A stretch of 64,000 bases of DNA from Minisyncoccota bacterium (lineage in GTDB: Bacteria; Patescibacteriota; Minisyncoccia; Minisyncoccales; Minisyncoccaceae): NCBI GenBank assembly GCA_041651655.1, contig JBAZIW010000003.1:8917-72916 (forward strand), in the 5' to 3' direction. The position numbers and the translations under genes are program-made. Every line of letters begins with the position of its first letter. Within the stretch, counting starts at the first letter, position 1. Shown here piece by piece: positions 6,914-30,690 of this stretch. The notes beneath the pieces were generated by a model that saw only the letters and a list, made by a program, of their open reading frames with translations, was not told the DNA's origin and did not search any database.

Positions 6914-7642
6914 TTACTGACAAAGACTGGCTGGTTGATTTCCTGTCGCAAGACAGATAACCTTCTTTAAAGAAGCTTTTTCAGATTCTTCTCCGGCAGA
7001 TTCGCCTGATCCGATTCTGAAATATTTACAACCAATTACCAAAGTGGGAACTGATCCGGTACTGTATTTATTAAAAACATCAGAATCTGTATCACTATCA
7101 ATGTTCTCGTGGTATGAAATAGTATCTCCGAATTCTTTAACTACACCTTGAAGGATCGGCTTCTCCCAGACACAGTGAGGACAGCCTGATGAACCAAAGA
7201 AGTATACAATCGGTTTTCCATTTTCAGAACAAACCTCTGTATCCTTTGCTTCAGAGAAACTTCCATCTAATTGTGTATCAGTAGTTTCTACTGTTGAACC
7301 TGTTTGTGTAGTGGATCCTGTTCCTTGATTTGGATCTTTAGTCATATCATATGGTTCACTGGCAAAAAGGTATTTTCCATCAGTACTTACATATGAACCG
7401 AATTTGTTTCCAGAAATTTCGATAGTTATTTTTCTAAGATTTCCAATCTGTTCTTTATCAACACTAACCAATGTTGCTGTTGTGCCTTCGGCTAATAAAT
7501 ATTTGTTAATGTATTCGATTCCTTTCTGAGCCGCTTTATCGGCCGAACCGAACATTGACTGAGAAAGCATTAACGCAAGAACGATAGAAATAACTGCAAG
7601 GATTATGGTGGCAATCTTCCACCTGTCTAACTTGATTTTCAT
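6914..7642 (-). CDS. membrane-anchored thioredoxin-fold (DsbA/thioredoxin-like) protein
   Basis: N-terminal TM helix (IATIILAVISIVLALML) and the CPHC active-site motif (FFGSSGCPHCVWEKP). Confidence 0.75.
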   Translation of the reverse strand: MKIKLDRWKIATIILAVISIVLALMLSQSMFGSADKAAQKGIEYINKYLLAEGTTATLVSVDKEQIGNLRKITIEISGNKFGSYVSTDGKYLFASEPYDMTKDPNQGTGSTTQTGSTVETTDTQLDGSFSEAKDTEVCSENGKPIVYFFGSSGCPHCVWEKPILQGVVKEFGDTISYHENIDSDTDSDVFNKYSTGSVPTLVIGCKYFRIGSGESAGEESEKASLKKVICLATGNQPASLCQ

Positions 7643-19427: not shown

Positions 19428-19865
19428 ATGAAGGCAAAAAAATCCGCAAAAATAGAGTGGAAAAAAGTTACATGGTACTCAACAGCTCTCGCTGTGATTT
19501 TATATGTTGGTGTTTTTTTAATTGGTTTTTATCTTGGTCAAAAAATGAATGAACTAAAAACAGCAATTGAACAGATACCTACCAGCACTTACGTTCAAAA
19601 ACAAACAAATAACAATACCATTACTGCCGCAAATTTTGATTGCAAAAATGGTAAGACTATTAATGCTATCTTCTTCGATGACAAAGTAGAATTAACTTTA
19701 AGCGAAGGCAGTACTTTATTGCTTTTAAGAGCTGTTTCTGGTTCTGGAGCACGCTACACCAACACTGGTGAAACTTATATTTTCTGGAATAAAGGCGATA
19801 CCGCTTTCTTAGAAGAAGGAAGCGAAACTACATACGAAGATTGTGTCGTTGTTCCAGCTGAATAA
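19428..19865 (+). CDS. membrane-anchored MliC-like (lysozyme inhibitor family) protein
   Basis: N-terminal TM. C-terminal domain with two Cys and the SGSGARY motif (…FDCKNGKTI…RAVSGSGARYTN…FWNKGDTAFLEE…EDC). Confidence 0.65.
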   Translation: MKAKKSAKIEWKKVTWYSTALAVILYVGVFLIGFYLGQKMNELKTAIEQIPTSTYVQKQTNNNTITAANFDCKNGKTINAIFFDDKVELTLSEGSTLLLLRAVSGSGARYTNTGETYIFWNKGDTAFLEEGSETTYEDCVVVPAE

Positions 19866-19943: not shown

Positions 19944-20144
19944 TTGGACTTAAAACAACTAAGGAAAGAGTTTTCTAATTACTTACTCATCGTTTTTCTT
20001 TCGGCCTTCTTTTCAGCAATGTTCGCACTATATATGTATGTCTGGGACGTACGAAGCGGATTGCCCATATTCTTCATCGGATTCTTTATCGCTTCCTTTG
20101 CAGTTCTTTCTCTAATCTTACCCAAGGCGCCGAAAAAAACTTAA
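19944..20144 (+). CDS. small membrane protein (TTG start)
   Basis: TAGGAGG lies 7 nt before TTG 19944. Two hydrophobic helices. A terminator hairpin AGAGG-ataa-CCTCT plus T-run follows. Confidence 0.5.
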   Translation: MDLKQLRKEFSNYLLIVFLSAFFSAMFALYMYVWDVRSGLPIFFIGFFIASFAVLSLILPKAPKKT

Positions 20145-20198
20145 AGAGGATAACCTCTTTTTCTTTTTTAAAAAACCTGCATTGCTGCAGGATTTTTA

Positions 20199-21650
20199 TT
20201 ATTTCTTTTTAATTACCGTTTTCTCTCCCGAATCTTCAACTTGCCAACCCTTCTCATCTATTTCTTTTCTTATCTGATCTGATTTATCCCATTCTTTATT
20301 TTTTCTGGCTTCATTTCTCGCTTCAACTAATTTCATAATATCTTCAGGAACAATACTGATATCACTGGTCCAGACGGGAATACCGTCTTTTTCTATTTTA
20401 ATAATATACTTTGACTCAGAAAGATCTTCTGATTTAACTGAAGATAGTTTTAATCCGAAAACTTTATCAAAGTCAATTAATAAATCGTATTTCTCTGAAT
20501 CGGTAAGATTGTTATCTTTTAGCATATCCCAAGTTAAAGCAAGAGCCGAAGGAATATTCAAATCATCATCAATGAAACTGATGAATTTATTCTGGTATTC
20601 TTCATATTTTTTTGAATGATCGGTTTTCTCACTCCTTGATAACTCAACTGTCTTTTCGTAAAGCTTGCTCAAACTTGTTTCGGCAAATTCAAGACTTTCA
20701 TCACTGAAAACAAGCTTGCTTCGGTAGTGAGTATTTAAACATAAATAGCGATAGGCAAGGGGACTGATTCCTTTTTCTTTTAATGTTCCCAAGGTGACAA
20801 TATTACCGGAAGACTTGGACATCTTTCCGTCTTTCAAATTAAGGAATTCTCCATGCATCCAATAATTAGCCATCGGCTTGTCATATACCGCTTCGGCTTG
20901 GGCAATCTCATTAGTATGATGAATAAAGACATGGTCAATGCCTCCGCAATGAATATCAAAAGGTATTCCTAAATTATTCACACTCATTACCACACATTCA
21001 GTATGCCAGCCGGGAAAACCGACTCCCCAAGGAGATTCCCATTCCATTTGTCTCTTTTCATTCTTGGGACTGAATTTCCACAAAGCAAAGTCAGCTTTGT
21101 TTTTCTTTTCTTTTACTTCTTCAATTCTTCCTTTCATTTCTTTTCTTTCGTTCTCTCCCCAAAGTCTGCCGTACTTGTCTAATTTTGAAGTATCGAAATA
21201 TACTCCGTCACTAATAATATAAGTGAATCCTTTCTTTTCCATTTCCTTGATTAGTTCTATCTGCTCAGGAATGGTATCAGTCGCTTTAACCCAGATAGTT
21301 GGATCAATGACATTTAGAGACTTTAAATCTTTTTTAAAGAAGTCTGCATAGAACTGAGAAATTTCCCAAACGGTTTTTCTTTCTTTCTTGGCTCCTTTTT
21401 CCAGCTTGTCTTCTCCGGAATCAGAATCGGAAGTTAAATGTCCGACATCGGTCAGATTCATTACATGCTTAACTTTGTATCCATTATATATCAAAACTCT
21501 CTTTAAAAAATCTTCAAAGAGATAGGTTCTCATGTTTCCGATGTGAGCAAACCAATAAACTGTCGGTCCGCAGGTGTAGATTCCGACTTCTTTGTCTTTA
21601 ATCGGCTTAAACTCTTCTTTTTTCTTGGTCAGGGTATTATATATTTTCAT
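20199..21650 (-). CDS. cysS: cysteinyl-tRNA synthetase
   Basis: HIGH-type motif (FAHIGNMRTY), KMSKS, and the CGGIDH/WHTEC zinc-site context. ATG 21650 lies 6 nt after a TATAAT. Confidence 0.93.
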   Translation of the reverse strand: MKIYNTLTKKKEEFKPIKDKEVGIYTCGPTVYWFAHIGNMRTYLFEDFLKRVLIYNGYKVKHVMNLTDVGHLTSDSDSGEDKLEKGAKKERKTVWEISQFYADFFKKDLKSLNVIDPTIWVKATDTIPEQIELIKEMEKKGFTYIISDGVYFDTSKLDKYGRLWGENERKEMKGRIEEVKEKKNKADFALWKFSPKNEKRQMEWESPWGVGFPGWHTECVVMSVNNLGIPFDIHCGGIDHVFIHHTNEIAQAEAVYDKPMANYWMHGEFLNLKDGKMSKSSGNIVTLGTLKEKGISPLAYRYLCLNTHYRSKLVFSDESLEFAETSLSKLYEKTVELSRSEKTDHSKKYEEYQNKFISFIDDDLNIPSALALTWDMLKDNNLTDSEKYDLLIDFDKVFGLKLSSVKSEDLSESKYIIKIEKDGIPVWTSDISIVPEDIMKLVEARNEARKNKEWDKSDQIRKEIDEKGWQVEDSGEKTVIKKK

Positions 21651-21680
21651 ATTTCTATTATATATCAATGTGCTCTATAT

Positions 21681-22526
21681 TTAAAGATATCTTTCTCCGC
21701 GGTCAGGGAAGACCGTTACAATCGTCGCTTCCGGGTGTTCTTTCTGTATTTCACGACAAACATACATGGCCGCTCCCGAACTGGGCCCAACTAACACTCC
21801 TTTTCTGGCTAATTCGTCTTTAGTGTTTAAAGCTTTTTCTGCTTCTAGGTCGTATATCTCATCAATCAAATCAAAATCAATGATGGTTGGCACGAATCCG
21901 TCTTTTAAAGATCTTAAGCCTTCAATCGTCTGATTCTGGACCGGCTGGACGCCAATGATTTTAATCTGAGGATATTTTTCTTTCAATTTTCTTCCGATTC
22001 CAGTGATCGTTCCTCCCGTTCCCATCCCAGCGATAAAATAATCAATCTGTCTGCCTTCCATTTGTTTTAATATTTCTTCGGCTGTTCCATGATAGTGAGA
22101 TTCGGGATTGGCCTCGTTTTCGTATTGATTTAAAAAAACATGTCTTTCTCCGCTCTTGGCCATATCTTTCACATCGTTGATGGCAAACTTCCTGTATCTT
22201 AAATTCTCCATCAAGATCACTTCTCCGCCAAACACCTTGACCATCTTTATTTTTTCTTTACTGGTGCTCTCCGGCATTATCACTTTAACTTTGTATCCTT
22301 TCATCGCCGCAACCATCGCTAAACCGACTCCGGTATTACCACTGGTCGGCTCAATCAAAGTGTCTCCTTTTTTTATATATCCCGCTTTTTCCGCTTCATT
22401 AATCATATTTAAGGCAATCCTGTCTTTAATCGAACCACCGGGATTGAATCCCTCCATCTTTGCGAAGATATTATTTTCTATTTTTACCAACGGCGTATCG
22501 CCGATATGCTCTAAAATTGTTTTCAT
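21681..22526 (-). CDS. cysK: cysteine synthase (O-acetylserine sulfhydrylase, CysK/CysM family)
   Basis: PLP lysine context NPGGSIKDRIA, TSGNTGVGLA, and the GTGGT loop (GMGTGGTITG). Confidence 0.88.
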   Translation of the reverse strand: MKTILEHIGDTPLVKIENNIFAKMEGFNPGGSIKDRIALNMINEAEKAGYIKKGDTLIEPTSGNTGVGLAMVAAMKGYKVKVIMPESTSKEKIKMVKVFGGEVILMENLRYRKFAINDVKDMAKSGERHVFLNQYENEANPESHYHGTAEEILKQMEGRQIDYFIAGMGTGGTITGIGRKLKEKYPQIKIIGVQPVQNQTIEGLRSLKDGFVPTIIDFDLIDEIYDLEAEKALNTKDELARKGVLVGPSSGAAMYVCREIQKEHPEATIVTVFPDRGERYL

Positions 22527-22540
22527 ATTTTATTATTAAC

Positions 22541-22563
22541 AAAAAATCTCTGGTTAAGAGATT
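22541..22563 (-). terminator. attenuator terminator (segments 3:4) in the cysK leader
   Basis: Minus strand: AATCTCT-taacc-AGAGATT followed by UUUU-G-UU, ending 14 nt before the cysK ATG. Confidence 0.55.
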
Positions 22564-22601
22564 AGTTTTATATTCCGTATTATTAAAAACAAACCAATCT
22601 C

Positions 22602-22655
22602 TTAGTCTAATGGGGGACAGCAACAGCAGCAGATTTGTTTGTTTACGTTTTTCAT
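22602..22655 (-). CDS. Cys-rich leader peptide MKNVNKQICCCCCPPLD (candidate attenuation leader)
   Basis: ATG AAA AAC GTA AAC AAA CAA ATC TGC TGC TGT TGC TGT CCC CCA TTA GAC TAA read on the minus strand. The ATG lies 8 nt after the -10 hexamer. Confidence 0.6.
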   Translation of the reverse strand: MKNVNKQICCCCCPPLD

Positions 22656-22663
22656 ATGTTTCT

Positions 22664-22691
22664 ATTCTAACAAAAGAGATTATATTGTCAA
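22664..22691 (-). promoter_or_regulatory. promoter of the cys leader/cysK transcript
   Basis: TTGACA 22691-22686, 16-nt spacer, TAGAAT 22669-22664. Confidence 0.65.
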
Positions 22692-22728
22692 GAATTGACA
22701 AAATTATTCGGTTTGATAATATTTAATC

Positions 22729-22954
22729 AGCCACCTCGACATATTCTGATGTGGCAAAGAAATGCTGGCAAAGAAATCGGGAACATGCACACCTCGATAT
22801 AATGCAACATCTCTCTTTGTCAAGAATAAATATGATTGACTAATGGATCAACCAAGTAATTCGGTATCTTTTCACCTCCTCAATTACCATACTTGGAAAA
22901 CCATAACAGGATCCATTAGTCATGATATCTTCAAAGAGCAAACAAGCTCTTTTT
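22729..22954 (+). ncRNA. candidate sRNA cassette A
   Basis: TTGACA 22695-22700, TAATAT 22717-22722. 12-bp helix GACTAATGGATC (22848-22859)/GATCCATTAGTC (22910-22921). Terminator AAGAGC..GCTCTT plus TTTT at 22934-22954. Confidence 0.4.
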
Positions 22955-22992
22955 CATTTGACAAAAATTAATTCAAAAGATAATATATTTAC

Positions 22993-23179
22993 AGAACGTT
23001 TCCAAAATCGTTCAAAACTAAAGACTCAAAGAGGTCTTTTTAAGTTGAAAGCGATACTATATACTTTCTAAAACTTAAGATATAGAAAGTTGCAGAAGAG
23101 TTTGGTGAATATGTCGCGACAAATTTATTTCACACAAAACTCTTCTCCCTTATTACGGGGACCTGGTGGGTCTTTTTTT
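22993..23179 (+). ncRNA. candidate sRNA cassette B
   Basis: TTGACA 22958-22963, N17, TAATAT 22981-22986. 10-bp helix AGAAGAGTTT/AAACTCTTCT. The terminator ends in a T7 run at 23173-23179. Confidence 0.4.
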
Positions 23180-23213
23180 GTTTGACAAAAAATAGAAATG
23201 GTATAAAGATATA

Positions 23214-23346
23214 CTTGTTCAGTATTACCCATACTGAACACCTTGAAAGCCAAAAAGCTTTCCAAAGGGGAGGAGGATTGATTAACCACGATCATTTTCT
23301 TCTCCCCATCTCATATAATTTAAAACGAACCCGAAAGGGTTCTTTT
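23214..23346 (+). ncRNA. candidate sRNA cassette C
   Basis: TTGACA 23182-23187 and an extended -10 TGgTATAAA (23199-23207). 11-bp helix GGGGAGGAGGA/TTCTTCTCCCC. Terminator GAACCC-GAAA-GGGTTC plus TTTT (23327-23346). Confidence 0.4.
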
Positions 23347-23383
23347 GTTTGACAAATTTTTCTATTACCCTTATTATCAAATT

Positions 23384-23499
23384 GTAGCGACGGCTCTGGT
23401 GTGTTGAATAGGAGTTGCAGTTCCTTTAAAATTAGCTGAATGACCTACCCTCCAAAGCAAAACAAAAGAGCCACAAAAATTGTGGCTCATTTCTTTTTT
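23384..23499 (+). ncRNA. candidate sRNA cassette D
   Basis: TTGACA 23349-23354, N17, TATTAT 23372-23377. Terminator GAGCCACA-aaaat-TGTGGCTC (23468-23488) plus a T-run. Confidence 0.4.
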
Positions 23500-23535
23500 A
23501 TTGACAAAATCTTAAAAAAGACTAAGATAAAAAAG

Positions 23536-23729
23536 TACAAAAAATTAACACAAATCCTCGGACATGATGAAGAGGCGTATCTTTAAAAGAACAAGTTTCT
23601 TAAGGAGGTCTTACCAAGATTTGCTGTTAAATACAATTAAAAAGGTGGAAGGTTCTTTCCCGACACTATCCATAAAAATCCTTCCACCTTTATCCAATTT
23701 CCCGTGTTTTGAGCTTAAGGCTCTTTTTT
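23536..23729 (+). ncRNA. candidate sRNA cassette E
   Basis: TTGACA 23501-23506, N16, TAAGAT 23523-23528. 10-bp helix AGGTGGAAGG/CCTTCCACCT. A weak GAGC..GCTC hairpin plus T6 is at 23711-23729. Confidence 0.35.
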
Positions 23730-23776
23730 GTTTGCAAAACCATTGACAAAATATTATAAAGGTTTACAATTAAGAT

Positions 23777-24010
23777 AGAACCTTGAATAACCTGTATGTA
23801 ATATTTTTCCTCTGTTTATTTAAACCGAGGAGTCTGAACTTTTTTCAGAATACTACATACGATGGTGTTTCAAAGCACCATAATCAAATTGATTCTATTT
23901 TAATAATTTCTATCTCTATAAAATTATTTTAATACTATCAATCAATTGGAGAGCCATTTACATCAGTGCTCTCCTTTCTCTTTTATACGGAGCTTATCGC
24001 TCTTTTTTTT
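23777..24010 (+). ncRNA. candidate sRNA cassette F
   Basis: TTGACA 23743-23748, N16, TACAAT 23765-23770. Helices GTATGTA/TACATAC and ATGGTG/CACCAT. Terminators GGAGAGC..GCTCTCC (23948-23974) and GAGC..GCTC plus T8 (23990-24010). Confidence 0.4.
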
Positions 24011-24048
24011 ATTTGCTTTTTCAAGGAAAAAATAATAGAATATGGTAT

Positions 24049-25146
24049 ATGTCAAACTTAGTTTTATATCGTAAATACAGACCACAGTCATTTAAAGAGT
24101 TCATTGGACAGAAACACGTGGTTACCACCATCACTAACGAAATAGCCTCGGGAATGATTTCCCACGCCTATATGTTTTCCGGACACCGGGGAACAGGAAA
24201 GACAACTCTGGCTAGATTATTTGCTAAGGCCATCAACTGTCAAAACTTGAAAGGATCCGAACCGTGCAACAAATGTCCTTCCTGTTTGGAAATCAACGGA
24301 GGCAAGGCAGTAGATATTATTGAAATTGATGCCGCTTCAAACAGAGGCATTGATGAAATCAGAAGCATCAGAGAGGGAATTAAATTTGCTCCCAACTTTT
24401 TAAAATACAAAGTTTTGATTTTGGATGAAGCTCACCAATTATCAAAAGATGCGGCCAATGCATTATTGAAAATATTGGAAGAACCGCCCTCATATGCAAT
24501 TTTCATTTTAGCCACCACCGAAGCTCACAAAATGATTCCGACGATTGCTTCCCGCTGTCAGAGATTTGATTTCTATAAACTCTCTTTTGATGAGGTGGTA
24601 GAAAAACTTTCTTTCATTTGCAAAAAAGAAGGAATTGAAATCGAGAAAGAAGCCTTGGGATTGATCGCTTCCGCTTCCGAAGGTTCAATGAGGGACGCCG
24701 AGGGAACACTGAATCAAGTTTTAAATTTCTTACCGGGCACTAAAATCAAAGCAGAAGACGTTCAACTGCTTTTAGGATTAGTAGATATCAATTTGGTAGT
24801 TGAATTAACCGATTATTTGATAAAAAAAGACAAAGCCGGAGCTTTGAAGTTTTTGAATGACAATATTGAGAAGGGAATAGATATTTCTGAATTTACCAGA
24901 ACTCTTATTGACTATTTACGAAAATTGCTTATCCTAAAGATTGATTCAAGTTTAATCAGTTCAGTAATGCCTGGAGAAACTAAAGAAGTAGGGGAGAAAG
25001 CTAAAAAACAAGCCGAAGGGTTATTAGAAGACAATTTAAAGAAAACCCTTAATCTACTCTTAGACGCTGACAATAAAAGCAAGTATGCTTCAATACAGCA
25101 ATTGCCTTTAGAATTGGCTTTAATTGAATCAATCGGAATTGAATAG
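24049..25146 (+). CDS. dnaX: DNA polymerase III subunit gamma/tau (N-terminal clamp-loader core)
   Basis: LYRKYRPQSFKEFIGQKHV, Walker A GHRGTGKTT, zinc module CNKCPSC, LDEAHQLS, SRCQRFDF. ATG 24049 lies 7 nt after TAGAAT (leaderless). Confidence 0.92.
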   Translation: MSNLVLYRKYRPQSFKEFIGQKHVVTTITNEIASGMISHAYMFSGHRGTGKTTLARLFAKAINCQNLKGSEPCNKCPSCLEINGGKAVDIIEIDAASNRGIDEIRSIREGIKFAPNFLKYKVLILDEAHQLSKDAANALLKILEEPPSYAIFILATTEAHKMIPTIASRCQRFDFYKLSFDEVVEKLSFICKKEGIEIEKEALGLIASASEGSMRDAEGTLNQVLNFLPGTKIKAEDVQLLLGLVDINLVVELTDYLIKKDKAGALKFLNDNIEKGIDISEFTRTLIDYLRKLLILKIDSSLISSVMPGETKEVGEKAKKQAEGLLEDNLKKTLNLLLDADNKSKYASIQQLPLELALIESIGIE

Positions 25147-25151
25147 AATAT

Positions 25152-25222
25152 TGCGGGATCGTCTAATGGTAGGACAGTGGCCTTTGAAGCCATTAATCTT
25201 GGTTCGAGTCCAGGTCCCGCAG
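25152..25222 (+). tRNA. tRNA-Gln (anticodon TTG), no encoded CCA
   Basis: Hand-folded: acceptor TGCGGGA/TCCCGCA, anticodon stem GTGGC/GCCAT with loop CTTTGAA, T-arm CTTGG-TTCGAGT-CCAGG. Confidence 0.88.
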
Positions 25223-25301
25223 CCGTCTTATGCTAAGTCAGGTGACTGAGATGCATACATGAAAATCACTGGTTTCATTCAGTGATTTTTCATTAGCGAT
25301 A

Positions 25302-26588
25302 TTATTCAAGAATAATCTTTTTATCCTTTAATACCAATTTACTTTTTAAAAATGATAGAAGTTCTCGCTTTTCGGTAATCGTGCCCTCTTTTAATAAATA
25401 CTTAGCGTAATTGCGGATATCGATGTCTGAATTACTAACTTCCTTTTTATGCCCAAGCACTCCAATTCTAAATTTATTGAATCTCATTAATTCTTTTTCA
25501 ATTTTGTCTTTTATTCCTAGATTATCTAAATCAATCTTATCCACGAGTTCCGTCAATTCGTCTATTAGGCTCGTTTCGCTTATCGGCTGATTCTTGCAAT
25601 CAATATTCCTAGCTTTGGTACAAAAGTAATAAACATGACGGTTAGTACCGCCATCTTTTAATTTCCTAAACTTTTCATCAGCCGATATTCCTGATCCGCA
25701 ATATCCGCATTTGATTAATTTAGTAAAAGCGAATTCTTTTGATTCTGTCTTAGGTATAAAATTCTCACCAAGACTCATTTGCACTTTATCAAATAACTCC
25801 TTAGTTATGATCGGAACATGTTTGCCAATATACCAATTACCACTGCCAACTGGATATTCAAATTCTCCATAATAAAAGGGATTTCTTAAGATAAGGTAAA
25901 TATTAGCAAGAACTAATGGTTTGCCAGTTTTAGTTTTGAATCCTATATCTATCAGCCATCTGAATATTTTCCTGCCACTATATTGTTCGTTAGCCACTCT
26001 TTCAAACATTTGCTTGATTATCGGTGCTCGTTTATGATCTATTCTGCATTGGCATTTCTTATCAACATGCTTTTCATTAAGATATCCAGTTGGTGCAACT
26101 CCTGGACGATAGCCCATTTCACATCTAGTTCTTAATCCTCGTTTCACGTTGACCGCTTTATTATCATTCTCAAGTTTAGCTTGAGAACCTAATATCATTA
26201 AAAGAAACTTCTCGTTTGGGTTATTGGTAAACTTCTGACCATAAGTTCTTATCTCGATTAATAACTTTTGATCCATTAAATCTACAATCGAGCCTAAATC
26301 TCCAGCATTTCTACTCAATCTATCTGGAGCCCAGGTTAAAATACCGTTATATTTTCCTTCTCTTATCTCTTTAATTATCTGATTGAAAACCTCTCTTTGG
26401 CCGACTTCTTTAGAAGAATGAGATTCTCTTTTAATTTCAACTATATCTAAATTATCCCGTTCTGCTAAGGATAGCATTTCCTTTATTTGGGACTCTATTG
26501 AAAGAGCTTGTTTATCCTCAGCCTCAGTTGATTTCCTAGCATACAAACAATACTTAATCTGAGTGCCTGTAATAGGGGACTGCTCCAT
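25302..26588 (-). CDS. large serine recombinase (resolvase/invertase N-terminal domain + recombinase domain + zinc ribbon)
   Basis: Catalytic region YARKSTEAEDKQALSIESQ, WAPDRLSRN, and a zinc-ribbon CGYCGSG...YYFC. Located immediately downstream of tRNA-Gln. Confidence 0.88.
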   Translation of the reverse strand: MEQSPITGTQIKYCLYARKSTEAEDKQALSIESQIKEMLSLAERDNLDIVEIKRESHSSKEVGQREVFNQIIKEIREGKYNGILTWAPDRLSRNAGDLGSIVDLMDQKLLIEIRTYGQKFTNNPNEKFLLMILGSQAKLENDNKAVNVKRGLRTRCEMGYRPGVAPTGYLNEKHVDKKCQCRIDHKRAPIIKQMFERVANEQYSGRKIFRWLIDIGFKTKTGKPLVLANIYLILRNPFYYGEFEYPVGSGNWYIGKHVPIITKELFDKVQMSLGENFIPKTESKEFAFTKLIKCGYCGSGISADEKFRKLKDGGTNRHVYYFCTKARNIDCKNQPISETSLIDELTELVDKIDLDNLGIKDKIEKELMRFNKFRIGVLGHKKEVSNSDIDIRNYAKYLLKEGTITEKRELLSFLKSKLVLKDKKIILE

Positions 26589-26746
26589 ATTTTCATTACT
26601 TATTATCTTATGGATAAGGATGACGCAATGGCTCTATGGAGTCCAGGCCTCATATGTAGACAAAGTGGAGACTGAAAAACGGTGTTCTATTTTGTCATAT
26701 GGGTGTATAATAAATTTAGTCGAAATATTATAATGAATAAAATAAT

Positions 26747-27460
26747 ATGAAAAATATAATTTTAACAGTAATCCTTTTAGGAATCGTTTTAGCTGGCAAT
26801 GCATATGCCGTAGGCCAGAATAGTAATCCTGGAACAGTCAATCAACAGAATCAAGTTGATAACCAGGGGGAAAACACTCAAATCAAAACCGACGATACGG
26901 TAAATAGCGGCGGTCAAGTCCAGCAAAAAACTCAACAACAGTTGCAAGACGGCACCGGCGATGGAAATCAAGTTCAAAATCAGCAACAGGTGCAAAATCA
27001 AGTAAGCAATCAAGAAGAAACAAAACAAGTCCAGAACGACTCAGGGGTCCAAAGAAGAAGCCAAGTGTCCAATGCCGTTCAAGAGATGATTCAAGTGGCT
27101 GAGAGAAGTGGCGGTATTGGAGAACAGATAAGAACAATTGCTCAGGCTCAAAACCAGAATCAAATTAAACTGGAAGAAAGTATTGAGAAAGTACAGAAGA
27201 GGAGCAACTTAGTCAAATTTATCGCTGGCCCCGATTACAGGGAAATAAGCAATGCTGAAAAAATACTAGAGCAGAACCGAGAACAAATTCAGCAGATAAA
27301 TCAAATTAAGATGCAATTAGAAAATTCAGCCGACCAGCAGGTTTTAACCGAACAAGTTCAGCTTCTTGAAGTCGCCAACCTTGAAATAGAGAATGTATTA
27401 AATAATTCTCAAAAAGAATTTAGCTTGTTAGGATGGATGTTTAAATTATTTAAAAATTAG
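26747..27460 (+). CDS. secreted Gln/Asn-rich hypothetical protein
   Basis: Signal peptide MKNIILTVILLGIVLAGNAYA, a long Q/N-rich low-complexity region, and a C-terminal coiled-coil-like half. Confidence 0.65.
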   Translation: MKNIILTVILLGIVLAGNAYAVGQNSNPGTVNQQNQVDNQGENTQIKTDDTVNSGGQVQQKTQQQLQDGTGDGNQVQNQQQVQNQVSNQEETKQVQNDSGVQRRSQVSNAVQEMIQVAERSGGIGEQIRTIAQAQNQNQIKLEESIEKVQKRSNLVKFIAGPDYREISNAEKILEQNREQIQQINQIKMQLENSADQQVLTEQVQLLEVANLEIENVLNNSQKEFSLLGWMFKLFKN

Positions 27461-27589
27461 CCTATTTAAAAAGTCGGCCACAAATATGTGGCTGTTTTTT
27501 CTCTTGACAAATAATAGTTATGAATATATACTCATAATAGATAGAGATGTTGTCCCATCTCTGTATAAGAAACAATAAATTAAAAATAT

Positions 27590-27817
27590 ATGCCAGGTTT
27601 AGACAAGACAGGTCCTGCAGGAATGGGAGCAGGAACAGGAAGAGGAATGGGTCCATGTTGCGGAAGGACAGGTCGTGGATACGGATGGGGAATGGGAGCA
27701 AGAAGATTCTTCACTAAAAAAGAAGAAGCTGAATTGCTGAAAGAAGAGGCCGAAGCTCTTGAAGAAGAATTGAAAGCTGTAAAAGAAAGAATCAGCGAGA
27801 TAGAGAACCAGAAATAA
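27590..27817 (+). CDS. DUF5320-like small protein (Gly-rich N-terminus, coiled-coil C-terminus)
   Basis: MPGLDKTGPAGMGAGTGRGMGPCCGRTGRGYGWGMG followed by EEAELLKEEAEALEEELKAVKERISEIE. Confidence 0.7.
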   Translation: MPGLDKTGPAGMGAGTGRGMGPCCGRTGRGYGWGMGARRFFTKKEEAELLKEEAEALEEELKAVKERISEIENQK

Positions 27818-27859
27818 GAAATACCCGCTCTGCAAGGGGCGGGTTTGACTATTAATAAA

Positions 27860-28126
27860 ATGAAAGTAATAAAAATTGGAGCAATTTGGTGCCAGGGATG
27901 TAAAATAATGGGTCCGAGATGGAAAGAAATAGAAATAGAAAACCCTTGGCTTAAAACCGAGTTCTATGATTTTGATCAGAATAAAGAAATTGTCAGTAAA
28001 TACAATCCCACAGCCATGCCTTCTTTCATCTTTTTAGATAAAAATGACAATGAAATCTTGCGTTTAAGCGGAGAAGTAGATAAAATGAAAATAATAGAAG
28101 CTATTAATCAAAACAAAGACAAGTAA
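27860..28126 (+). CDS. thioredoxin-like protein
   Basis: WCQGC active-site motif (IGAIWCQGCKIMGP) and a cis-Pro context (PTAMPSFIF). The first ATG of track ORF 27845..28126 is at 27860. Confidence 0.65.
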   Translation: MKVIKIGAIWCQGCKIMGPRWKEIEIENPWLKTEFYDFDQNKEIVSKYNPTAMPSFIFLDKNDNEILRLSGEVDKMKIIEAINQNKDK

Positions 28127-28127
28127 T

Positions 28128-28406
28128 ATGGTAAGGCCAGTAAAACCAAGAAAGATATGCTTTAATCCAGGGGTGACATATTTTAAACCCCGAGCAATAC
28201 CTTTATCTTCGCTAGAAGAAGTTGATTTGGGCATGGATGAACTGGAGGTTTTGAGGCTTTGTGATTACAAGGGGCTTAATCAAAAAGAGGCCGCAATCAA
28301 GATGAAAGTATCGCAAAGTACATTGCAGAGAATTTTAGTCTCTGCCAGAAAAAAAGTTTCCGAAGCTATTGTTGAAGGTAAAGCTATAAAAATAAATAAT
28401 AAATAA
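28128..28406 (+). CDS. DUF134/UPF0251-family putative DNA-binding protein
   Basis: MVRPVKPRKICFNPGVTYFKPRAIP... followed by the sigma-70 region-4-like HTH LNQKEAAIKMKVSQSTLQRIL. Confidence 0.75.
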   Translation: MVRPVKPRKICFNPGVTYFKPRAIPLSSLEEVDLGMDELEVLRLCDYKGLNQKEAAIKMKVSQSTLQRILVSARKKVSEAIVEGKAIKINNK

Positions 28407-28410
28407 AAAT

Positions 28411-29322
28411 ATGAAAAAATCTATATTTTTAATTTTAATAATTTTAGTAGTTATCCTTTCTGCTGTTTTCTATTTTTATCAAAACAAAGCTACTAATGGA
28501 ATGATCATGCTGATTGAATTCGAAAAGATTGAAGGAGTCCTAAATTGGGAAAGAGAACTGGACAACAGAGGAATAGGTGCCTTAGTTAAAGTTCAAGATA
28601 ATGTACTAGAAGAATATCCAGACGTTTTTAAGAGATTGGCCAATAAAGGATACGAAGTGGCCGGAGGATATGATATCGCACCTTTTTGGGATATGCCCTA
28701 CGAAGAGCAATATCAATACATGAAAGAAGCTCAAGAATTGATTTATAATACCACTGGCAAGGAAATGAGAGTCTTTGGAAGCAGGTATTTCGCTTATGAT
28801 GAAAACACATTAAAAGCAGCTGATGCCTTAGGGATAGAATATGTATTAGCCAGGGGAACTCAAGGAGTCAAAGCTACAGTCTATGATCCCGAAGAATACA
28901 AAGTTAAGATAATATCTGTTTCAAACATAGTATTTGAAGATATGGGATCAGGCTCTTTATGTGATTATAGCCTTTGGGCCAGAGGAGCTGATGCCAATGA
29001 TTTTCAAAAGGTCGTCAATGAAAGTTTTTCAGAAGATGCAGAAAACCTGATACTTGTATCTCATGCCTATCTTGGCGGGACAAGGCAGGAATGGTGGAAT
29101 GTTTATCAAAACGCTTTGAATTCTAATAAGGTAGATTGGACATCTTTTGATTCTTGGATTTCCAAGGTCAAAGTATCTTCAATGCCCAACAAAGACATTC
29201 CTATCAACAAAGAGGTTAAATATGTCGCTCCTACTCCCGCTAAAGCAATAGAGGATTTTGAGCCAATTCCTAATCTTGACCAATTATTAAAAGAGGAAGA
29301 ATTCTGCCCAGTTTGTTATTAA
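28411..29322 (+). CDS. hypothetical membrane-anchored protein (C-terminal CPVC)
   Basis: 303-aa ORF with an N-terminal TM. No family confidently recognised by eye. Confidence 0.6.
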   Translation: MKKSIFLILIILVVILSAVFYFYQNKATNGMIMLIEFEKIEGVLNWERELDNRGIGALVKVQDNVLEEYPDVFKRLANKGYEVAGGYDIAPFWDMPYEEQYQYMKEAQELIYNTTGKEMRVFGSRYFAYDENTLKAADALGIEYVLARGTQGVKATVYDPEEYKVKIISVSNIVFEDMGSGSLCDYSLWARGADANDFQKVVNESFSEDAENLILVSHAYLGGTRQEWWNVYQNALNSNKVDWTSFDSWISKVKVSSMPNKDIPINKEVKYVAPTPAKAIEDFEPIPNLDQLLKEEEFCPVCY

Positions 29323-29431
29323 AAGCACGAGGAGACACGATATAATTCCTTTTGATATGTACCCCAAAAAGTAGACACATGGTGTCTCTTTTTTGTACGA
29401 TATAAGAAAAGGATAAAATAAAGATATAAAT

Positions 29432-29812
29432 ATGCAGGAAAAATTCACAAAAGGGCAGATTAAAAAGCTGTCGGAGAATAAGAATGTGGAAAGGTGCGGC
29501 TTAAGTTCGATAAGATACACTAAGAGCTTTAAAGAAAAAGCTTTGAAGCAATATAATGAGGGGCTGTCTGCGATTGAAATATTCGAAGCAGCGGGATTCG
29601 ATCTAGGCATAATCGGCAAAAGAGCGCCGAACCGGCTGATGAACCAATGGAATAACTCTCGTCGGCCGAAGCATAAGGAAATAGAATCCGACGAGGGCAA
29701 AGAAAAAAGAACTGGAAGGAGGAGGGAAATTAATGATCTTCGAGACAGAATAACCTACCTTGAGGCCGAGAACGATTTTTTAGCCAAGCTCCGGGCAAAG
29801 AAAAGAAGATAA
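29432..29812 (+). CDS. IS3-family transposase OrfA (HTH + leucine zipper)
   Basis: 126 aa. C-terminal heptad-like ITYLEAENDFLAKLRAKKRR. Confidence 0.85.
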   Translation: MQEKFTKGQIKKLSENKNVERCGLSSIRYTKSFKEKALKQYNEGLSAIEIFEAAGFDLGIIGKRAPNRLMNQWNNSRRPKHKEIESDEGKEKRTGRRREINDLRDRITYLEAENDFLAKLRAKKRR

Positions 29813-29871
29813 TCTTAGAGCCGTTCCAGAAATTTAGGATAATCAGAAAGATAGGAAGGAATCCGAATAAA

Positions 29872-30690
29872 ATGTGCAAGCTGGCTAAGGTATCCAAATC
29901 TGGATACTACAGATGGCTCAAAAATGAAGATAAGAAGCCCAAGGACTACGACGATTACCTTTTAGTCAAGGAAATATTCGAAAAAGGCAGATCAAAATAC
30001 GGCTGGCGGACGATCCAGATGAAGCTCTTGGAAAAAGGAATTAAGATGAATCACAAAAAGATAGAAAGGATTAAAAGGAAATATGATTTGATAACTAAAA
30101 TAAGAAGAAGAAATCCATATAAGGAAATGATGAAAAGGACAAAAGAGCATCGGACCTTCGGCAATATCCTGAACCGAGAATTCAAGCAGGAGGGTCCGCA
30201 GAAAGTATTCTGCACGGATATCACGTACTTGCCCTTTAACAGTAAAATAGCCTACCTCTCAGCAGTCAAAGACATCGCTACTAAGGAAATCGTCGGATGG
30301 AACCTTTCCAAGCGCCTGCAGATGGATATCGTCCTTGATACAATCAAGAGCATGGAAAAGAACGACGGCATTGATTCATTGAAAAACATAGTCATCCATT
30401 CAGACCAAGGATTCCACTATACCAGCCCAGGATACGTTTCAAAGATTAAAGAATTAAAGATGGTGCAATCCATGTCCAGGAAAGGCAAGTGCATCGACAA
30501 CGCTCCGATAGAATCATTCTTCGGGCACTTCAAAGACGAGGTCGACTACAAAAATTGCAAGACCTTTGAAGAGCTGAAAGAATTGACAGAAGAATACATT
30601 AGCTATTACAATAATGAAAGAAGGCAATGGAACATCCAAAAGATGACTCCGATAGAGTACAGAAACCATCTTTTAAATGCTATCCGTTAG
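29872..30690 (+). CDS. IS3-family transposase OrfB (DDE/rve catalytic domain)
   Basis: HSDQGFHYTS and CIDNAPIESFF motifs. This frame is open from 29764 and is -1 relative to orfA, overlapping its A-rich end (GCAAAGAAAAGAAGATAA). That is consistent with an OrfAB frameshift product. Confidence 0.88.
   Translation: MCKLAKVSKSGYYRWLKNEDKKPKDYDDYLLVKEIFEKGRSKYGWRTIQMKLLEKGIKMNHKKIERIKRKYDLITKIRRRNPYKEMMKRTKEHRTFGNILNREFKQEGPQKVFCTDITYLPFNSKIAYLSAVKDIATKEIVGWNLSKRLQMDIVLDTIKSMEKNDGIDSLKNIVIHSDQGFHYTSPGYVSKIKELKMVQSMSRKGKCIDNAPIESFFGHFKDEVDYKNCKTFEELKELTEEYISYYNNERRQWNIQKMTPIEYRNHLLNAIR

Follow-up and report, generated by a model that had tools for sequence, protein, structure and literature searches.

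The 64,000-nt stretch of DNA analysed here (the window) comes from a Minisyncoccota bacterium (contig JBAZIW010000003.1), a member of the Patescibacteria or candidate phyla radiation (CPR), and carries on its minus strand a cysK-like gene of the cysteine synthase family, whose product is dependent on pyridoxal phosphate (PLP), followed by the cysteine--tRNA ligase gene cysS. The cysK product scores 334 bits against TIGR01136 (cysKM), just under the cut-off of 344, and the cysS product scores 434 bits against TIGR00435, for which the cut-off is 340. The subject of this work is the leader of cysK, in which a promoter, a short open reading frame (ORF) with five consecutive Cys codons and four RNA segments (seg1 to seg4) with the capacity for alternative pairing precede the structural gene (Table 1). 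An original prediction, made from the letters of this stretch alone, had described the leader as a candidate ribosome-mediated cysteine attenuator, i.e., a switch in which a ribosome translating the Cys codons decides between read-through and premature termination. The relatives of its CysK protein, in records named Candidatus Paceibacterota or Minisyncoccales (filed by NCBI under the phylum Minisyncoccota), place the window in the CPR. Gene regulation in the CPR is almost unstudied; most of these bacteria are uncultured, and very few regulators can be recognised in them.

The cysK leader and its Cys codons

The best promoter match in the region upstream of cysK is TTGACA/TAGAAT, which agrees with the consensus at 11 of 12 positions, has a 16-nt spacer and carries a TG dinucleotide before the -10 box. 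The leader ORF downstream of it reads ATG AAA AAC GTA AAC AAA CAA ATC TGC TGC TGT TGC TGT CCC CCA TTA GAC TAA. When the minus strand was checked, the promoter and the 17-codon ORF lay exactly, to the base, where the original prediction had placed them. Runs of at least four Cys codons are expected 0.12 times per shuffled window. Besides the leader the 64 kb contain only one other such run, at 7472-7483 on the plus strand; it was considered as a second leader and rejected, since it lies antisense to a real gene (6914-7642). The leader was also searched against Rfam at gathering and at permissive thresholds, and no family was matched.

Table 1. Positions of the cysK leader elements and adjoining features in the window
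Feature	Positions	Strand	Remarks
-35 box TTGACA	22686-22691	minus	Putative leader promoter; kept in 19/19 leaders of the window's clade
-10 box TAGAAT	22664-22669	minus	TG-extended; 8 nt upstream of the leader ATG
Leader ORF, MKNVNKQICCCCCPPLD and stop	22602-22655	minus	17 codons; absent from the annotation
Five Cys codons, TGC TGC TGT TGC TGT	22617-22631	minus	Proposed sensor
Pro-Pro codons	22611-22616	minus	Immediately 3' of the Cys run, at the predicted boundary between read-through and termination
Seg1, AAACAAACAAAUCU	22631-22644	minus	Directly 5' of the Cys run; partner is seg2
Seg2	22587-22604	minus	22604-22591 pairs with seg3 (22568-22555); 22600-22587 pairs with seg1 (22644-22631); U-run follows
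Seg3	22555-22568	minus	14 bp with seg2, or AAUCUCU (22563-22557) with seg4
Seg4, AGAGAUU	22545-22551	minus	3' arm of the putative terminator hairpin
U-tract UUUUGUU	22538-22544	minus	Follows the 3:4 hairpin; transcription is proposed to stop prematurely here
cysK-like gene	21681-22526	minus	Cysteine synthase family, PLP-dependent; ATG at 22526
cysS	20199-21650	minus	Cysteine--tRNA ligase; 30 nt downstream of cysK
cysS promoter-like site, TTTAAA (21685-21680), 17 nt, TATAAT	21657-21662	minus	Positions are those of the TATAAT box; in the end of cysK
Divergent -35 box TTGACA	22695-22700	plus	Back-to-back with the leader -35 box; outside the proposed attenuator

Conservation of the leader among relatives

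Loci containing cysK (designated by L numbers below) were collected from one genome per species, from metagenomes, and from contigs of CysK homologues with 63-100% identity to the protein of the window or to that of L084. The metagenomes were scanned with a CysK alignment keyed on the universal motifs of the enzyme; the loci recovered were mostly distant and from outside the CPR, and they served as negative control only, save L081 and L084. Every CPR cysK locus with enough upstream sequence was found to carry the same element, in which a TTGACA/-10 promoter is followed by a short ORF containing Cys codons and then, before cysK, by a hairpin with a U-tract. The original prediction had named conservation in relatives as one of its checks, and in the 28 distinct leaders so obtained the ORF with its Cys codons is kept and the four segments are conserved or co-vary. 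In the other approximately 150 cysK loci, there is no upstream short ORF with three Cys codons or more in succession.

All close relatives of the window have four to six Cys codons in the leader, and the deeper clades have between one and 11. The leader peptides of the window's clade (73-100% CysK identity) include MKNINKQICCCCPPLD, MNKIITNQICCCCCPPID, MINENNKICCCCCCPPID, MENKANQICCCCSLSD and MENRINRTCCCCPL. Those of the deeper clades are very unlike the window's in sequence, as exemplified by L084 (MKCETNQICCCACCTLFGEVSFLNF), L180 from Nealsonbacteria (MEKETNPKSCCECCCCDCCCTC), L182 (MQSRINPQSKVCCNCCASFKEGVSLVINIK) and L184 from Portnoybacteria (MNNIIRTQTDSCCCALEKVSRVICMCLC); a further group of leaders with one or two Cys codons has the peptides …CVCMSLF, …CLCINLF, …ICMSLF, …YCISLF and …LCIVLG. 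Four of the longer leader peptides were looked up by exact match in a collection of 15 billion proteins and none was present, which indicates that these ORFs have gone unannotated.

Predicted translation of the leader ORF and probable leaderless initiation

In an alignment of 18 leaders, 309 pairwise differences in the four Cys columns are synonymous (TGT/TGC) and 0 are non-synonymous. At the two Pro codons that follow, the third position likewise varies, with Pro kept in 17 of 18 sequences at the first codon and in 15 of 18 at the second.

In 20 leaders, namely all 19 of the window's clade and L180, 7-8 nt separate the -10 box from the ATG, and from this fixed gap we infer a transcription start no more than 2 nt away from the AUG. 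In the deeper clades the gap is 9-19 nt, and no Shine-Dalgarno (SD) sequence is present. Leaderless mRNAs seem to be common in this genome, judging by the start regions of the 62 ORFs in the window (G+C content 36%): a TA[TAG]AAT box ends 6-9 nt before the start codon at nine of them, and an SD-like 4-mer is found at five. The scarcity of SD motifs agrees with the reported loss of the anti-SD motif from the 16S rRNA in a subgroup of Parcubacteria (PMC9297842), and these two facts together make control by SD masking unlikely here.

Competing RNA helices

The positions of seg1 to seg4 in the original prediction proved exact, but the helix formed by seg2 and seg3 (2:3) is longer than had been noted. 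It comprises 14 bp and takes in all three bases of the stop codon; within it, AAGAGATT at 22603-22596 is complementary to AATCTCTT at 22563-22556. Seg1 is complementary to seg2 at 13 of 14 positions, after which a U5 run follows, and it resembles the 5' part of seg3, so that seg1 and seg3 compete for seg2. The 3:4 stem consists of 7 bp, two of them G-C pairs. For the leader of the window, the calculated energies are -12.5 kcal/mol (z -1.8) for 1:2, about -14.4 to -15.3 kcal/mol (z -5.6 to about -6) for 2:3, and -4.9 to -5.4 kcal/mol (z -3.75) for 3:4. For the seg2...seg3 pattern, the window has a single occurrence against 0.12 expected.

The same layout recurs among the relatives. In nearly all leaders, the 5' arm of the hairpin, together with a few bases upstream of it, finds a complementary segment at the stop codon; in leaders with longer ORFs, the antiterminator segment sits just after the Cys codons and not at the stop codon. 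The 2:3 helix overlaps 5-9 nt of the 5' arm of the terminator in all leaders, i.e., the two helices are mutually exclusive. A hairpin followed by at least four U residues is present in 28 of 28 distinct leaders, and a hairpin plus T4 as strong as the leader's was found in 4% of intragenic control windows. The hairpins of AT-rich genomes have a stability of about -5 kcal/mol and those of GC-richer genomes of up to -16 kcal/mol, and in the GC-richer clades the hairpin has the form of a strong canonical terminator (-8 to -16 kcal/mol). The distance from hairpin to cysK is 10-23 nt in the close clades and in L084, L180, L182 and L184.

Another candidate terminator, the 1:2 hairpin with its U5 run, was considered and found unlikely, as it has a 30-nt loop and the U-run is missing in L168. 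The 1:2 helix followed by the U-run may be a pause site.

Within the window's clade, pairing amounts to 88.5% for 2:3 and 99% for 3:4, versus 29-70% when the segments are slid against each other; here the helices are maintained by sequence identity. For comparison across clades, the leaders were aligned as gapless blocks, each helix being anchored at one base pair (the conserved CUC core of seg3 with its partners). Both sides change in eight of the 13 pairs of 2:3, giving 27 cells against 8.4±2.8 in shuffled alignments, and in four of the seven pairs of 3:4, giving 18 cells against 4.0±1.6 with 98% of cells paired; neither value was reached in 500 shuffles (0/500), a statistic that is inflated by the relatedness of the sequences. 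The covariation that had been proposed as a further check of the original prediction is seen for both helices across clades in these anchored alignments, beyond 500 shuffles. Slid controls for 2:3 and 3:4 score two- to five-fold lower. For 1:2 the corresponding figures are ten of 13 pairs and 38 cells against 12.1±3.4 (0/500), a count that is partly circular in that the best duplex was chosen for each sequence. Column 29 of alignment A4, which belongs to seg3 and contains U or C, co-varies with column 6 in seg2 and also with column 48 in seg4 (both A or G), and this pattern is the signature expected of two mutually exclusive helices. The sequence comparison argues less strongly for the sequestration of seg2 by seg1 than for 2:3 and 3:4.

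Modelled ribosome positions

The leaders were folded up to the end of the hairpin in a thermodynamic model, with an assumed ribosome footprint held unpaired. In the first version of the model, the terminator probability was 0.09 or less in 27 of 28 leaders when the A site held the first Cys codon, and 0.83-1.0 in 26 of 28 when it held the stop codon. This version let seg1 pair with seg2 across the bound ribosome, which is sterically implausible, and it was replaced by a stricter one that restricts folding to the RNA 3' of the ribosome, with the edge of the footprint set at +11 or +14. For the window, the stricter model gives a terminator probability of 0.00 for each A-site codon up to the first Pro and of 0.82-0.92 from Leu/Asp to the stop codon; whether Pro-Pro belongs to the termination zone is ambiguous, the value being either 0.00 or 0.82 according to which footprint edge is assumed. 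A role for the Pro-Pro codons at this boundary is speculative.

In nearly all leaders, those with a single Cys codon included, the switch predicted by the stricter model falls one to three codons past the Cys run. The modelled outcomes follow the logic that the original prediction had set out, in which the 2:3 antiterminator results from a stall at the Cys codons and the 3:4 terminator from a ribosome that has reached the stop codon. The arrangement of the leaders is consistent with attenuation; the occurrence of attenuation itself is beyond what a model of this kind addresses.

Proposed mechanism and alternative explanations

From the layout of the leader and the modelled folds, we propose, with a probability of roughly 0.78, that the element is a ribosome-mediated, Cys-tRNA-sensing transcription attenuator of cysK whose output is intrinsic transcription termination. 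The wider proposition, that it is a Cys-codon-dependent, ribosome-mediated cis-regulator of cysK with either a transcriptional or a translational output, is in our estimate highly probable.

In the proposed mechanism, transcription would start at or within 2 nt of the AUG, and a 70S ribosome would load on the 5' end of the transcript without an SD sequence. When Cys-tRNA is scarce, the ribosome would stall in the five-Cys run with its footprint ending before seg2; seg2, together with the stop codon, would pair with seg3 as a 14-bp antiterminator, formation of 3:4 would be blocked, and RNA polymerase would read into cysK and, by read-through, also into cysS. When Cys-tRNA is plentiful, the ribosome would reach the Pro-Pro-Leu-Asp-stop end of the ORF and cover seg2, upon which seg3 would pair with seg4 and the transcript would end at the U-tract, 14-18 nt before cysK. 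Should the ribosome have left, or never have loaded, seg1 could hold seg2 in the 1:2 helix with the same outcome, i.e., termination.

Several observations weigh against this proposal. The calculated stability of the 3:4 stem in the window is at the weak end when set beside the gene-end terminators of the same stretch, which range from -5.7 to -17.5 kcal/mol (-8.6 kcal/mol for that of cysS, CCTGCAGCAATGCAGG-T6 at about 20191-20176), and a consensus terminator scan did not call the 3:4 hairpin of the window; of the putative terminator in the original prediction, the hairpin and U-tract are conserved before cysK, with a stem that is weak in the window. The minimum-energy fold of the full-length leader without a ribosome is the antiterminator state. 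As the modelled equilibrium favours the antiterminator, termination without translation would need kinetic trapping, with 1:2 forming first. Within the window's clade plus L180 (alignment A3) covariation is not significant, with one double-sided change per helix and with the observed values reached in 239/500 and 36/500 shuffles, so that the case from covariation rests on the anchored cross-clade alignments; the anchors in these were taken from predicted pairs, and the alignments lean towards the structure for that reason, 1:2 most of all. Several deep-clade leaders have only one Cys codon, and L184 fits the modelled switch pattern in part only. Finally, in L003 (2877-2930), a 94%-identical relative, the Cys run has lost 2 nt, the leader ORF is out of frame as a result, and the shifted ORF reads through the terminator. 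L003 is a metagenome-assembled genome whose contig names suggest long-read assembly, and the deletion may reflect faulty assembly or else a sensor that was lost naturally.

The alternative that fares best, though we regard it as quite unlikely, keeps the Cys-sensing ORF and gives it a translational output, so that a stalled ribosome would open the start region of cysK instead of, or besides, causing antitermination. A precedent exists in the leaderless polycysteine ORF Ms5788A of mycobacteria, which has been proven experimentally to act by unmasking a ribosome-binding site. The 3:4 hairpin of the window's clade ends 16-23 nt before the cysK ATG, near enough to hinder an initiating ribosome, and a stem of -5 kcal/mol would make a poor terminator. 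However, cysK has no SD sequence to be masked (it is preceded by UUGUUAAUAAUAAAAUAUG), and the genome hardly uses SD sequences (PMC9297842). The cysK start region is unpaired in both predicted folds. A U-tract comes right after the hairpin in every leader, and the GC-richer clades have the strong canonical terminator described above; in L008, L009, L010, L081 and L185, the hairpin is located 38-154 nt upstream of cysK, too far away for masking of the start.

It is very improbable that the short ORF encodes a functional Cys-rich micropeptide (metal-binding, redox or precursor) that is simply co-transcribed with cysK, the hairpins being ordinary structure. The Cys and Pro-Pro residues are indeed under purifying selection at the protein-coding level, and independent roles for peptides of this kind were left open by Canestrari et al. 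(bioRxiv 10.1101/834739). Yet the clades differ freely in N-terminal sequence, length and number of Cys residues (1 to 11), and it is the placement of the Cys codons with respect to the RNA switch that does not change. In every case the ORF is linked to cysK, with none elsewhere in the window, no genes for maturation or transport lie nearby, and seg2, seg3 and seg4 co-vary as alternative helices.

The least credible explanation is a chance run of Cys codons with cysK under the control of a promoter-bound protein or of a metabolite- or tRNA-binding RNA element, for, although an inverted repeat (TTGTCAA-TTC-TTGACAA) overlaps the -35 box and T-boxes control cysK, cysE and cysS in Firmicutes, runs of at least four Cys codons are rare and that of the leader is conserved in frame with an AUG at a fixed distance, the spacing of the outer arm of the repeat to the leader -35 box varies from 3 to 33 nt among relatives, which makes a fixed palindromic operator unlikely, and neither a T-box nor any other Rfam family matches even at E<=10. 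The repeat was rejected as an operator on account of this varying spacing and of its outer arm, which is the -35 box of a divergent promoter. As to the T-box, there was no match at E<=10 in positions 20000-25000 nor at E<=5 in 22900-24050; the original prediction had likewise seen no T-box signature.

An extension of the attenuation proposal, which we consider doubtful, is that the element belongs to a class-wide, ancient family of Patescibacteria attenuators that operates on leaderless mRNA with ribosomes devoid of the anti-SD, possibly reading both the supply of Cys-tRNA, at the Cys run and with read-through as the outcome, and a Pro-Pro pause at the boundary of the switch that depends on elongation factor P (EF-P). 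If true, this would be the first ribosome-mediated attenuator described for the Patescibacteria radiation, and the Pro-Pro pause would hold the ribosome on seg2, enforcing termination despite a three-times-stronger antiterminator.

Genes probably under control

The original prediction had taken cysK and cysS as the joint target. The identities of both genes and the assignment of the element to cysK stand, but cysS probably has a separate, leaderless promoter of its own, judging by the promoter-like site in the end of cysK, whose TATAAT box lies 6 nt before the cysS ATG (21650) and is conserved both within the subclade of the window and in L164, L166, L168, L172 and L173. In L005, L006, L161, L169 and L176, cysS abuts cysK directly, and the cysK of deep clades is monocistronic and has a terminator to itself. 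Because of this promoter and of the monocistronic cysK of the deep clades, the element is to be regarded primarily as a leader of cysK; in the window, cysS is probably under dual control.

Neighbouring sequence

A conserved small unit that has no ORF possesses a promoter to which the divergent -35 box next to the leader promoter is homologous. This unit lies at 22958-23195 on the plus strand, with TTGACA (22958)/TAATAT, a body of approximately 190 nt and the terminator GGGGACCTGGTGGGTC-T8 (23157-23183). Its 3' 60 nt (23133-23195) are approximately 80% conserved in the distant relatives L166 and L172 (two copies each) and L168, and it has no match in Rfam. We regard the unit, which is divergent from the cys leader promoter, as a candidate novel small RNA. 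Positions 22700-22957 form an insertion of approximately 260 nt relative to L001, L004 and L007, and the window has the -35 box a second time, at 22694-22700; in L001, L004 and L007, the divergent promoter is back-to-back with the -35 box of the cys leader at a distance of 3 nt.

Three consecutive promoter- and terminator-like units without ORFs fill positions 23349-24003 on the plus strand, up to dnaX (24013). Their TTGACA boxes are at 23349, 23501 and 23743, and their terminators at 23468-88, 23711-23 and 23989-24003. The gene for the signal recognition particle (SRP) RNA often precedes dnaX in bacteria; the three units had no Rfam match, and no SRP RNA gene was detected among them.

Farther away, a tRNA-Gln gene (25152-25224) is followed immediately by a gene for a large serine recombinase (25302-26588, minus strand) and, at a greater distance, by an IS3-type transposase gene (29872-30690); the region 25152-30690 may be a mobile element integrated at the tRNA gene. 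A small membrane-anchored protein with an MliC domain (c-type lysozyme inhibitor), unusual for a CPR bacterium, is encoded at 19428-19865 on the plus strand. Among the relatives, L182 (1-895) and L183 (1-913), from 'Parcubacteria bacterium DG_74_2', have a gene divergent from the cysK leader whose product contains the Pfam domains TFIIB and Zn_Ribbon_TF. These domains are of archaeal/eukaryotic type; the cysK leaders of L182 and L183 have a bacterial TTGACA-type promoter and a terminator with a U-tract.

Comparison with known systems

A search of the literature found no description of attenuators in CPR bacteria. The original prediction knew of no leader-peptide attenuation described for a cys operon in this kind of organism; the lineage, Patescibacteria, is new, but Cys leader peptides as such are already known from other bacteria (PMC1262725, bioRxiv 10.1101/834739, PMC8632094). 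The element is a new sequence family in a new lineage, with a proposed mechanism that is textbook and of which cysteine versions have been reported before. A conserved Cys-sensing leader would mean that at least one classical cis-acting mechanism operates in CPR/Patescibacteria, with transcription and translation presumably coupled even where ribosomes are reduced and anti-SD-less and mRNAs are leaderless, and that CPR cells regulate their own cysteine synthesis, although their metabolism is usually described as host-dependent. As a compact and variant-rich family, with 1 to 11 sensor codons and terminators from weak to strong, the leaders could be used for studying how attenuators are tuned, and the unannotated leader ORF is a concrete feature for annotation pipelines to add.

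In its four-segment layout with cognate codons, the placing of its stop codon at seg2's edge and the putative terminator directly before the first structural gene, the leader resembles the trp, his, leu, thr, ilv and phe attenuators of Proteobacteria and the trp and ilvB attenuators of Actinobacteria. It differs from these classical examples in that the amino acid is cysteine, the mRNA is apparently leaderless, there is no SD sequence for the leader peptide, and the host is a CPR bacterium with a reduced genome. The sensor codons are located just 3' of seg1 and not inside it, and in the window's clade the terminator stem is very weak while the antiterminator is about three times stronger.

Like the Cys T-boxes of Firmicutes (cysE-cysS, cysK), the element is proposed to sense the charging of tRNA-Cys and to choose between terminator and antiterminator. 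In a T-box, uncharged tRNA is bound directly and no leader peptide is involved; the leader described here has an ORF and no T-box match.

Candidate Cys leader peptides were reported by Seliverstov et al. (2005) in Mycobacterium, Propionibacterium acnes and Bifidobacterium longum (PMC1262725). In these short ORFs, too, runs of Cys codons come close to the stop codon, and the ORFs are located upstream of cys or cbs operons, but no terminator hairpins were found for them and Rho-dependent termination was proposed, whereas a hairpin with U-tract and an antiterminator are conserved in the CPR leaders.

Another related system is uORFC-8-2, an upstream ORF (uORF) described by Brewer et al. (2021) as a predicted ribosome-mediated attenuator before cysS in Rhodobacterales (PMC8632094). 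The two have in common tandem Cys codons in a uORF, a terminal stem with a U-run, and a target gene concerned with the supply of Cys-tRNA. In uORFC-8-2 there are two Cys codons, at positions 14-15 and inside the first stem, the element is found only before cysS, and it was not reported to be leaderless; in the leader described here, by contrast, the Cys codons are located in the loop between seg1 and seg2, and the Patescibacteria family has 1-11 Cys codons and stands before cysK.

A further parallel is found in mycobacteria. In M. smegmatis, leaderless polycysteine ORFs cause attenuation of the cysteine genes downstream of them (Canestrari et al. 2020; bioRxiv 10.1101/834739; Mol Microbiol 114:93) by a translational mechanism in which pairing hides the SD site (bioRxiv 10.1101/834739; cited in PMC13236596), and Rv2334A, also a leaderless polycysteine ORF, is located upstream of cysK1-cysE in M. 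tuberculosis (bioRxiv 10.1101/834739). The CPR leader resembles these small ORFs (Ms5788A, Rv2334A) in being an unannotated first ORF with consecutive Cys codons before cysteine-metabolism genes, and a stall at the Cys codons, predicted in our case, is proposed to relieve repression through rearrangement of the RNA. The mycobacterial ORFs act by sequestration of the SD site and need no terminator, whereas here the SD sequence is missing and a hairpin with U-tract and an antiterminator are conserved. Since the phyla are unrelated and the sequences show no similarity, the CPR element presumably arose independently of the mycobacterial ones, and it would add an independent origin of cysteine attenuation to the mycobacterial and alphaproteobacterial cases.

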